A DNA stretch of 64,000 nt from Acidobacteriota bacterium (GTDB lineage: Bacteria; Acidobacteriota; Vicinamibacteria; Vicinamibacterales; 2-12-FULL-66-21): the NCBI GenBank assembly GCA_003222675.1, contig QHWT01000078.1, positions 12,731 through 76,730 of the forward strand, given 5' to 3'. The notes below the pieces were generated by a model. That model was not told where the DNA came from. It worked only from the letters and a program-made list of their open reading frames with translations, and made no database searches. How positions within the stretch are numbered: position 1 is the stretch's first letter; each line of letters opens with the position of its first letter. The translations under genes and the position numbers were made by a program. Shown in pieces: positions 31,257 to 31,981 of the stretch.

Positions 31257-31981
31257 GCGCGCCTCGCAAAGATGACGGCGCCGACCATGCCGAGCAGAAT
31301 CAGAACTGCCGCCCCTTCGAAGGCAATCATGTAGCGGCCGAGGAGCTCCGTCCCAATGGTTCGAGCCGAATCGAGTGCCGGAATTGGCGCGGGCGCGGGC
31401 CAGGGCGCAAATGCGATGGCGCCGAGCAGACCCAGTGCGACGATGAACCCGGTGACCGCCGCGATGCGCGTGAACTCGTGCGTCATCGCCATGTCCATCT
31501 CCATGCCGGATGACATATGCCCGTGCTGAACGGCCGATTGTCCGTGGTCTTTAACGTGGGAGGCAGAGCCGTGTGCGTGATGTTCTGGCGCCGGTTGCAA
31601 CGCCATCCCGCACTTCGGACACTGACCAGGCTCGCGGGATCGGACGTCGGGATGCATCGGACAGACGTACTCGTCGGCGGGTCCGGTCTCTTCGGGAGGC
31701 GCGATGCCCATCATGCTTCCACCGGGATCGGGCGACACCATCACCATGAAGAGCACCATCACGAGCATCCCGGCTACGTACATCATGATTTGCATCGACG
31801 CGAGCAGGTCAGCCGAGAGGAGGAGGAACAGGCCACCAATCGCACAGAAGCTCGCCATCAACGAGAATCCGGATCGCACCATGCTCATCGTGCGTAGCAT
31901 GCGAAACGTACCGCCAATCGCCACGGTCGACAGCACCACGAACAAGAGCCACTCGACTGGCGGCGAGAGCGTTCCGTTCAT
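31253..31981 (-). CDS. nuoJ: NuoJ-like subunit with an inserted heavy-metal-binding domain and His/Met-rich tract
   Basis: 242 aa from an internal ATG that overlaps the nuoH stop (ATGA). TM1-3 and the C-terminal [30 protein letters not shown] are NuoJ-like. Between TM3 and TM4 lies [26 protein letters not shown] (HMBD pattern), followed by [35 protein letters not shown]. Confidence 0.75.
   Translation of the reverse strand: [242 protein letters not shown]

Follow-up and report, generated by a model that had tools for sequence, protein, structure and literature searches.

A heavy-metal-binding domain inside the NuoJ-like subunit of an arm-less complex I membrane module that probably pumps or gates copper ions

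This report concerns a seven-gene operon in a 64,000-nucleotide stretch of an Acidobacteriota genome (contig QHWT01000078.1; the whole of this stretch is hereafter the window) and, in particular, its NuoJ-like gene, the product of which resembles a membrane subunit of respiratory complex I and carries a heavy-metal-binding domain (HMBD) between its third and fourth transmembrane (TM) helices. Judged by its sequence, the operon, nuoA-H-J-K-L-M-N, is a complex I-derived seven-subunit membrane module without the redox arm rather than an ordinary complex I, and its gene neighbourhood places it in a copper/silver-resistance island. It belongs to a widespread and apparently undescribed family of arm-less complex I membrane arms, the constant and, in the alignments, essentially invariant mark of which is that NuoA, NuoJ and NuoK have Met residues next to their E-channel carboxylates. 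These complexes probably pump or gate copper ions with the proton-motive force.

The NuoJ-like protein (242 amino acids, 9.5% Met) is encoded on the minus strand at 31253-31981, within an open reading frame (ORF) extending from 31253 to 32164, the start being the ATG at 31981. The gene overlaps nuoH at its start (ATGA at the nuoH stop) and nuoK at its stop by 4 nt each. Its product matches the Pfam family PF00499 (Oxidored_q3) with an E-value of 3.7e-19 and 69.3 bits, compared to a threshold of 33.2, and has both the five helices of the NuoJ/ND6 family, as seen in its hydropathy, and the TM3 Tyr (Y68, corresponding to E. coli Y59). The Pfam match is made in two stretches with the insertion between them. 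As an equivalog of subunit J, the protein falls short of all ten NCBIfam models; the best of these, NF005163, yields 77.4 bits where 174 would be needed. In an alignment with its E. coli counterpart the insertion falls between TM3 and TM4, at residues 83-172 (31466-31735), giving a loop of around 90 residues where E. coli has around 21. The inserted segment contains 5 Lys and Arg, 12 Asp and Glu, 9 His and 9 Met residues. An earlier note on this DNA had described a NuoJ-like protein with an insertion at this point, and its translation and placement of the insertion agree with ours.

The core of the inserted domain lies at 31592-31669, exactly the coordinates which that note gave for a 26-residue heavy-metal-binding segment, and the assignment is borne out by Pfam: residues 105-131 match PF19335 (HMBD) over profile positions 2-28 of 28 with an E-value of 4.2e-14 and 52.6 bits, well above the gathering score of 23.6. 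Searching the sequences of the PDB, NuoJ residues 100-131 match residues 36-66 of Legionella pneumophila CopA (LpCopA; PDB codes 3RFU and 8OVL) with an E-value of 2e-7. The CPMH...CPxCGM set is shared in full, since C42, M44, H45, C56, C59 and M61 of LpCopA align one-to-one with the candidate ligands C107, M109, H110, C121, C124 and M126 of NuoJ. The insertion is thus confirmed, at the level of sequence, as an HMBD of the LpCopA type with candidate Cu(I) ligands assigned by alignment. In LpCopA the metal-binding domain has a zinc-ribbon-like fold and holds Cu(I) via three sulfurs; its part is to sense copper and thereby lift the autoinhibition that a flexible tail imposes, not to deliver ions (Hu et al. 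2024, PMC11970713).

The predicted structure of NuoJ agrees with this assignment. AlphaFold2 modelling of NuoJ alone gave a mean predicted local distance difference test (pLDDT) score of 65.5 and was confident for the HMBD only, with values of 86-94 over residues 101-130. The predicted domain has the small zinc-ribbon-like fold, superimposing on the nuclear magnetic resonance structure 8OVL in Foldseek with a root mean square deviation of 1.9 Å over 33 columns, a target TM-score of 0.72 and a probability of 1.00. Matches of the whole model to NuoJ and NdhG chains were weak and the packing of its TM helices cannot be relied on; the model was therefore not used to judge the direction of Met side chains. 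Following the HMBD is a His/Met-rich tract (HHAH...MAMTH) at 31478-31582, which is probably disordered, since pLDDT falls below 50 over residues 137-166. The tract had been noticed before, with a boundary at 31591 that takes in three more residues, APE. It terminates, just ahead of TM4, in the family-conserved motif MxMDMAM(T/S) (31478-31504), of which M164 and M166 are invariant in the family alignment. At the other end of the loop, the cytoplasmic exit of TM3 bears the motif DPGGSMM (31709-31729), with D85, P86, G88, M90 and M91 invariant.

Homology and the positive-inside rule alike indicate that the insertion faces the cytoplasm, as do the HMBDs of P1B-ATPases. NuoJ has an accepted N-out/C-in topology, and the distribution of Lys and Arg residues agrees with it: there are none in the predicted periplasmic N-terminus, none in the TM2-TM3 loop and one in the TM4-TM5 loop, compared to three in the TM1-TM2 loop, five in the TM3-TM4 loop and two in the C-terminus, all predicted to be cytoplasmic. 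Many homologues carry an extra HMBD at the NuoJ C-terminus which, after five helices, lies on the same side of the membrane as the loop. The question of sidedness, raised by the earlier note, is thereby answered in favour of the cytoplasm, as far as charge and homology allow.

A search of a 90%-clustered protein database returned 447 homologues at E <=1e-3 and, among the best 120 of these, 114 share the combined PF00499 and PF19335 architecture. The best homologues contain between one and three HMBD motifs, placed in the TM3-TM4 loop, at the C-terminus or in both, and Met makes up 9-13% of their residues. An origin of the gene as a chimera, in which assembly had joined part of a P1B-ATPase to a NuoJ gene, would be prompted by the unusual architecture alone; we consider it ruled out for practical purposes. 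The architecture recurs in those 114 proteins and in hundreds of assemblies made independently, isolate genomes and closed plasmids among them; moreover, the frame is unbroken and the conserved DPGGxMM and MDMAM motifs flank the insertion on both sides. A search of representative sequences with the whole NuoJ gave 7104 matches at E <=1e-3, 695 at <=1e-10 and 30 at <=1e-30; no clean family size can be derived from these since they mix NuoJ relatives with unrelated proteins bearing multiple HMBDs.

The seven genes of the operon lie on the minus strand with start and stop codons that overlap or abut. Upstream of nuoJ are nuoA (32895-33218; 107 amino acids, PF00507), in which the FDMEMIYM motif combines the equivalents of E. 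coli D79 and E81 with three flanking Met residues that are invariant in the family, and nuoH (31978-32898; 306 amino acids, PF00146). Downstream are nuoK (30945-31256) and the genes for three antiporter-like subunits, nuoL (28929-30944; 671 amino acids, PF00361 and PF00662), nuoM (27458-28927; PF00361) and nuoN (26047 to approximately 27455). Alignment with E. coli shows all the proton-translocation residues checked in NuoA, K, L, M and N to be kept, with the single exception of NuoL D400, replaced by Thr. These comprise D79 and E81 of NuoA, E36 and E72 of NuoK, and the TM5 Glu and TM7/8/12 Lys/Glu of the antiporter-like subunits. NuoL, with intact catalytic Glu, Lys and His, keeps D82, E144, D178, K229, D303, H334, H338, K342 and K399, NuoM keeps E144, K234, K265, H322, H348 and E407, and NuoN E133, K158, K217, K247 and K395.

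NuoH, in contrast, has lost the acidic residues of the quinone cavity and E-channel: relative to E. coli the changes are E36V, D63T, E71P, E157L, E216V and K303L, and E220 lies opposite a gap. The NCBIfam equivalog scores of NuoJ (77 against 174), NuoA (68 against 163) and NuoH (116 against 305) are below every cut-off; NuoL scores 433.9 against 407.5 with TIGR01974. Phmmer searches with E. coli queries, which covered the ORFs of the window and not the rest of the genome, found no homologues of NuoB, CD, E, F, G or I, so that the membrane genes have no peripheral-arm genes beside them. The earlier note had treated the protein as a NuoJ, the TM3 of which lies at the heart of the complex I E-channel; with the peripheral arm missing, NuoH altered and the equivalog scores too low, it is no subunit of a respiratory complex I.

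To view the family independently of the HMBD, one genome per species was scanned with two Met-rich NuoJ motifs, yielding 77 loci in at least 12 phyla, all with the operon order A-(D)-H-J-K-L-M-N. The closest relatives, at 60% identity, are from Terriglobales. Other hosts include Ktedonobacteria, Chloroflexia, Anaerolineales, Ignavibacteria, Bacteroidota, Deinococcus and Truepera, as well as several Proteobacteria, Desulfobacterales, Gemmatimonadaceae, cyanobacteria, Actinomycetota, Myxococcota, Verrucomicrobiota and Vulcanimicrobiota. At least 74 of the related loci likewise lack peripheral-arm subunits. Among the family loci, NuoB and NuoCD occur only in two (L039 and L042) and NuoE and NuoF in none, while NuoG and NuoI are seen in L062 alone, where they belong to a separate, adjoining nuo set that has H, J, K, L, M and N genes besides those of the operon. 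That HMBD-bearing NuoJ proteins might be routine in ordinary nuo operons was considered and rejected, since in no locus does an operon of the HMBD-bearing or Met-rich kind include an NADH module or NuoI. Full-text literature searches, of incomplete coverage such that earlier work may exist, found no published description of the HMBD-NuoJ architecture.

The number of HMBD copies varies from 0 to 5 per NuoJ (n=83): 51 loci have none, 13 have one, nine have two and ten have at least three. By this measure the HMBD is an accessory feature of the family and not its defining mark. In members without it the TM3-TM4 loop is filled with Asp/His/Met repeats such as GMDHGDMDMGGMDMSM. Such loops reach up to around 200 residues of Asp/His/Met/Gly repeats (e.g. 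GMDHG, DMDMGGMDMSM), as in L058, L060 and L061 (Deinococcus), L019 and L045 (Truepera) and L029 (a cyanobacterium); they resemble the Met-rich copper motifs of periplasmic proteins although predicted to be cytoplasmic.

Further variation concerns a NuoD-like gene of 470-500 codons, present without NuoB between nuoA and nuoH in 24 of 83 loci (L003, L004, L005, L012 and 20 more). Its product lacks the key residues of the quinone site, the His being replaced by Ala in 18 of 21 sequences and the Tyr by Pro in 21 of 21. In loci with NuoD, NuoH keeps E157, D213, E220 and E228, whereas in those without it these residues are lost, the pattern being mostly E157V, D213L and E216F; the family therefore has two architectural subtypes. 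The two Chloroflexota loci mentioned above (L039, 7244-8928; L042, 7226-9060) encode a NuoB-like protein with all four cluster-N2 cysteines together with a NuoCD-like protein. In both, NuoD is without the quinone His and Tyr and NuoJ bears two HMBDs; such loci may be evolutionary intermediates on the way from a redox complex to an arm-less one. Directly upstream of nuoA, eight loci have genes for P-II-like proteins (L001, 8028-8384; L004, 6409-6795; and six others) and two have genes for DUF305 proteins (L061, 8139-8759; L085, 10147-10635), neither type being present in the window.

These comparisons bear on whether the operon could be a spare membrane arm of a true complex I, docking a peripheral arm encoded elsewhere and forming an NADH:quinone oxidoreductase that tolerates copper or is regulated by it. 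In favour of this, none of the seven membrane subunits is missing and their order is canonical, Streptomyces reportedly has partial second nuo operons, and NuoB with its four cluster cysteines persists in the rare relatives L039 and L042. We nevertheless consider the proposal very improbable: NuoH lacks the acidic residues of quinone cavity and E-channel entry, NuoJ, NuoA and NuoH fall far under equivalog cut-offs, the NuoD-like subunits have Ala and Pro for the quinone-binding His and Tyr, the operon is found on plasmids and, in L062, beside the separate nuo set described above, and a 90-residue loop with a folded domain occupies the place where a peripheral arm would dock.

The methionine signature was defined from family alignments of 70-83 members per subunit, compared with E. 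coli. In NuoA the pattern D79-M-E81-M-x-x-M, placing Met at E. coli V80, A82 and L85, is seen in 72 of 72 members where canonical sequences have FD[VL]E[VT]xF[LF]. NuoK has M30 and E72-M73 in 78-79 of 79, these Met residues lying at E. coli F30 and A73 and being specific to the family; the canonical motif is AAAE[AV]A. In NuoJ TM3, Met occupies the positions of E. coli I57, V58, I63, L66 and V70 in 81 of 83, against the canonical AAQILIYVGAVNVLILF and ALEIIVYAGAIMVLFVF. At the family Met positions the comparators, at least six canonical sequences, are aliphatic. In the window the NuoJ ladder (31733-31810) reads D58, Q64, M66, M67, Y68, M72, M75 and M79, of which Q64, Y68, M72, M75 and M79 project within +/-40 degrees on one face of an ideal helix. 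The cytoplasmic motifs of the family NuoJ are DPGGxMM, MxM(T/S) and TMSM, the last situated in the TM1-TM2 loop (31880-31891), present in 80-81 of 83 members and replacing HTNP of E. coli. Three family-specific Met residues occur in NuoH, and three in NuoN, which adjoins the E-channel (at E. coli L170, I281 and S336); NuoL and NuoM have none. This distribution places the special chemistry in the E-channel half of the complex, toward the cytoplasmic mouth that anchors the HMBD loop.

The association with copper was assessed in 52 loci of at least 15 kb, using HMMs (hidden Markov models) built from neighbouring genes and a distance of 10 kb. A copper-specific gene, defined as CopA, CsoR, CopZ, multicopper oxidase, SCO1, PCYCGC or YtkA, is present in 25 of the 52, and any metal-efflux gene in 33, figures that are lower bounds since a CopC/D-like protein and a CDF-family protein in L071 were missed. 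Given the few copper loci in a genome, chance would presumably account for only a few per cent. Individual contexts include the arrangement CsoR-CopZ-operon-CopA, multicopper oxidase, SCO1, PCYCGC, YtkA, Cus systems, CDF and MerR. The operon is plasmid-borne, too, in Rhodopseudomonas (a conjugative plasmid, with CusA/CzcA and DUF305 alongside), Methylobacterium (a mobilizable plasmid) and Deinococcus. In the window it follows directly downstream of cusCBA, PCYCGC and YtkA genes on the same strand.

The whole is read most economically as a machine of the Mrp kind that works without redox chemistry and in which proton flow is coupled to a soft-metal site or path. We estimate a probability of about 0.5 for a Cu(I)/Ag(I) exporter driven by the proton-motive force and built on the complex I/Mrp scaffold, with the HMBD as its cytoplasmic sensor or gate. 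Proton translocation would stay with the Lys/Glu machinery of NuoL, NuoM and NuoN, and the proximal E-channel (NuoA TM2, NuoJ TM3, NuoK TM2/3 and parts of NuoH and NuoN) would become a soft-metal path for Cu(I) or Ag(I). In the manner of an Mrp antiporter, protons passing inward through the antiporter-like subunits would move Cu(I) out of the cytoplasm and, with several protons per ion, the driving force would be comparable to that of ATP hydrolysis. The exported metal would be handed to the neighbouring CusCBA, YtkA and PCYCGC proteins. By analogy with LpCopA, the HMBD and His/Met tail would sense copper in the cytoplasm or act as a gate: once Cu(I) is bound, the loop would be released or become ordered and so free TM3. 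The loop might also gather Cu(I) for the mouth of the channel, where the DPGGxMM, TMSM and MDMAM motifs lie. That all of these elements hold together, namely a Met-lined Cu(I) path in the E-channel, several protons per ion via NuoL/M/N, gating by the HMBD and hence a hitherto unrecognised class of Cu/Ag exporter, we advance more tentatively, at somewhat below an even chance. The suggestion in the earlier note of metal-gated or metal-coupled ion translocation is in keeping with the Cu(I)-sensor type of the HMBD, the cytoplasmic loop and the copper island, although its functional part still reads as a proposal.

Several points weigh against an exporter. Metal transport, its direction, coupling and gating are all inferences. 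The HMBD taken alone argues for sensing and not for transport, because that of LpCopA is regulatory and does not deliver ions. Free Cu(I) in the cytoplasm is vanishingly low, and we know of no Cu+/H+ antiporter of the NuoAHJKLMN type. Met is common in canonical NuoJ and NuoK, and some of the family positions are shared with canonical proteins (M33 of NuoK; M103 of NuoA in Paracoccus), while the continuous Met path is a proposal drawn from alignments and an ideal helix rather than a multi-subunit structure. Around one third of loci have no recognisable metal gene nearby. Finally, the window copy of the operon may be inactive, or its assembly imperfect, because nuoN carries a frameshift.

The sensing role of the LpCopA domain, which is no delivery site, leads to a different possibility, namely that the complex is a copper-gated translocator of H+ (or Na+/H+), switched by cytoplasmic Cu(I) through the HMBD and His/Met loop and passing no metal itself. 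Such a device might tune the proton-motive force or pH for the neighbouring efflux pump or counter copper-induced membrane stress. It would accord with the conserved proton-pump residues and with the siting of the insertion: in open and closed complex I structures, the NuoJ TM3-TM4 loop is a control point for the conformation of TM3 and the continuity of the E-channel. Yet the 51 of 83 members without HMBD keep the invariant TM Met residues beside the E-channel carboxylates, for which reason a pure sensor model is insufficient, and these members have long Asp/His/Met repeats in the same loop. We therefore regard gating without metal passage as unlikely, though a contender to be reckoned with, and retain the exporter as the preferred reading.

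The frameshift in nuoN is of 1 nt, at approximately 27264-27267, where the sequence gta ttt gag gg/a cgt acc (27255-27275, containing a short G run) encodes VFEG followed, in another frame, by TYRLD; the equivalent in L001 is VFFGTYILD. It could be a sequencing indel or denote a real pseudogene. Together with a second, split efflux gene in the window and the resemblance of the HMBD fold to zinc ribbons, it might be taken to indicate a decaying or functionless paralogue in which a structural zinc ribbon is a tolerated, lineage-specific insertion and the copper context reflects hitch-hiking in a mobile island. Such decay is very unlikely in a family whose motifs are invariant over at least 12 phyla, with the catalytic residues intact in seven subunits, start and stop codons tightly overlapped and HMBDs gained repeatedly at two cytoplasmic positions. 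Moreover, gene calls in the other loci sampled gave the whole operon of seven genes, each with a product of full length.

Upstream of nuoA by 8 nt, and like the operon on the minus strand, lies a gene (33227-33463) for a Met/Gly-rich protein of 78 amino acids with two TM helices (…GMTGMMGMGMTGGMACCGGMMGWG…), which matches nothing in Pfam or NCBIfam. In L004, L019, L044 and other loci, too, a small Met-rich membrane protein, often of SHOCT type, is encoded upstream of nuoA, and such proteins may constitute a recurrent eighth component. Beyond it, still on the minus strand, are genes for an ICMT/PEMT-like methyltransferase (33628-34275), a membrane enzyme weakly matching the methanethiol S-methyltransferase MddA, a secreted Met-rich protein (34453-34824), a YtkA-like protein (34841-35296) and a PCYCGC protein (35335-35883). 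These are followed by the cusCBA-type heavy-metal efflux system of the resistance-nodulation-division (RND) class (35945-42149, minus strand), made up of a CusA-like protein (35945-39199), a CusB-like protein with a YtkA domain (39221-40792) and an OEP (40797-42149).

On the other side of the operon, the minus strand encodes a MerR-family regulator (24440-24907) and an HMA-domain protein (22673-23143), an arrangement repeated in L001 and L002. A class I S-adenosylmethionine-dependent methyltransferase gene lies on the plus strand at 25424-26038, and methyltransferases recur near family operons (L004, 4199-5269; L005, 4156-4827; L084, 21644-22261). Between the window's two RND systems the plus strand encodes an MIP/aquaporin-family channel (44809-45696) and a metallophosphoesterase (45797-46381). 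The second CusA/RND gene seems split (48143 to approximately 51190, minus strand): the ORF at 48143-49798 covers only residues 471-1020 of ACR_tran, and the N-terminal half must lie in another frame, beneath a spurious plus-strand ORF at 49924-50898. Its CusB-like (51192-52385) and OEP (52382-53872) partners look intact. The split gene and the nuoN frameshift may mean that this copy is damaged or that the assembly has indel errors. A scan of 24000-43000 found no promoter-like sites, and terminator-like sites were no more than the shuffled expectation, which is uninformative as to transcription units.

Demonstrated here are what the domain is and where it is inserted, its topology as judged from homology and charge, which genes make up the operon, how they are conserved and what they are associated with in genomes. 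Even the minimum, an HMBD inside the NuoJ of an arm-less nuoAHJKLMN operon found in copper islands, helps annotation and the reading of 'partial nuo operons' in metagenomes. If the complex moves, or is gated by, Cu(I), it would be a new, widespread and horizontally mobile metal-resistance determinant, carried by at least 12 phyla and by conjugative and mobilizable plasmids, in soil, marine and extremophile lineages where its genes are currently mislabelled 'NADH-quinone oxidoreductase subunits'. An exporter would add a fourth principle of bacterial copper efflux to P1B-ATPases, RND pumps and CopB/CDF-type systems, and would imply that the membrane scaffold of complex I can change its specificity, with H+/Na+ giving way to a soft transition-metal ion. 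For complex I and Mrp research, it would be a natural experiment on how the E-channel is coupled to antiporter subunits, in a redox-free, ligand-controlled version whose control element is the TM3-TM4 loop of NuoJ (ND6), the loop whose rearrangement in complex I accompanies TM3 rotation.

Comparison with known systems begins with the membrane arm of complex I itself (NuoA, H, J, K, L, M and N, corresponding to ND3, 1, 6, 4L, 5, 4 and 2), with which the operon shares all seven subunit families and their gene order, as well as a five-TM NuoJ with its TM3 Tyr and the proton-transfer residues of NuoA, K, L, M and N. It differs in that complex I possesses NuoB, C, D, E, F, G and I, of which the window operon has none, and NuoH acidic residues that are lost here, while the present system has Met-lined E-channel helices and, at the place of the peripheral arm, a 90-residue loop of metal-binding type. 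The N-terminal HMBD of LpCopA (8OVL, 3RFU; PF19335) has in common with that of NuoJ the motif, the six candidate ligands, the predicted fold and the cytoplasmic side; a flexible His-rich segment nearby and a variable copy number are further likenesses. In Cu(I) P1B-ATPases the domain is at the N-terminus and the His-rich tail precedes the core, whereas in NuoJ the domain occupies an internal loop or the C-terminus and the tail follows it.

CusA, an exporter driven by the proton-motive force, has a Met relay along TM helices beside its proton-relay carboxylates. The likeness, by analogy, is that of Met along TM helices near carboxylates, the Met ladder here being deduced from sequence; CusA has the unrelated RND fold and takes metal mainly from the periplasm. 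Complex I-like sets without the NADH module are likewise seen in the second nuo operons of actinomycetes, said in Streptomyces to consist of nuoA2, B2, D2 and H2-N2, and in the Mbh, Mbx and Fpo relatives. Compared by description, these keep NuoB and NuoD or hydrogenase-type redox subunits, and an HMBD-bearing or Met-rich NuoJ in a copper-island context is unreported for them.

The Mrp antiporters (MrpA-G) provide the mechanistic analogy, having in common redox-independent NuoL/M/N-like and NuoK/J-like subunits and, as proposed here, the expulsion of cations at the expense of the proton-motive force. The operon does not contain the MrpA-G subunit set: NuoL yields 279 bits against 937 on the best NCBIfam model of Mrp subunit A, all Mrp models are far below their cut-offs, and no small subunits of MrpE, F or G type were identified in the operon, where no search with dedicated Mrp profiles was made. 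It has instead NuoH and NuoA homologues and a free-standing NuoJ, in contrast to the NuoJ-like domain fused at the C-terminus of MrpA. The candidate substrate differs too, being Na+ or K+ in Mrp and here, as the Met lining and HMBD would suggest, a soft metal ion.

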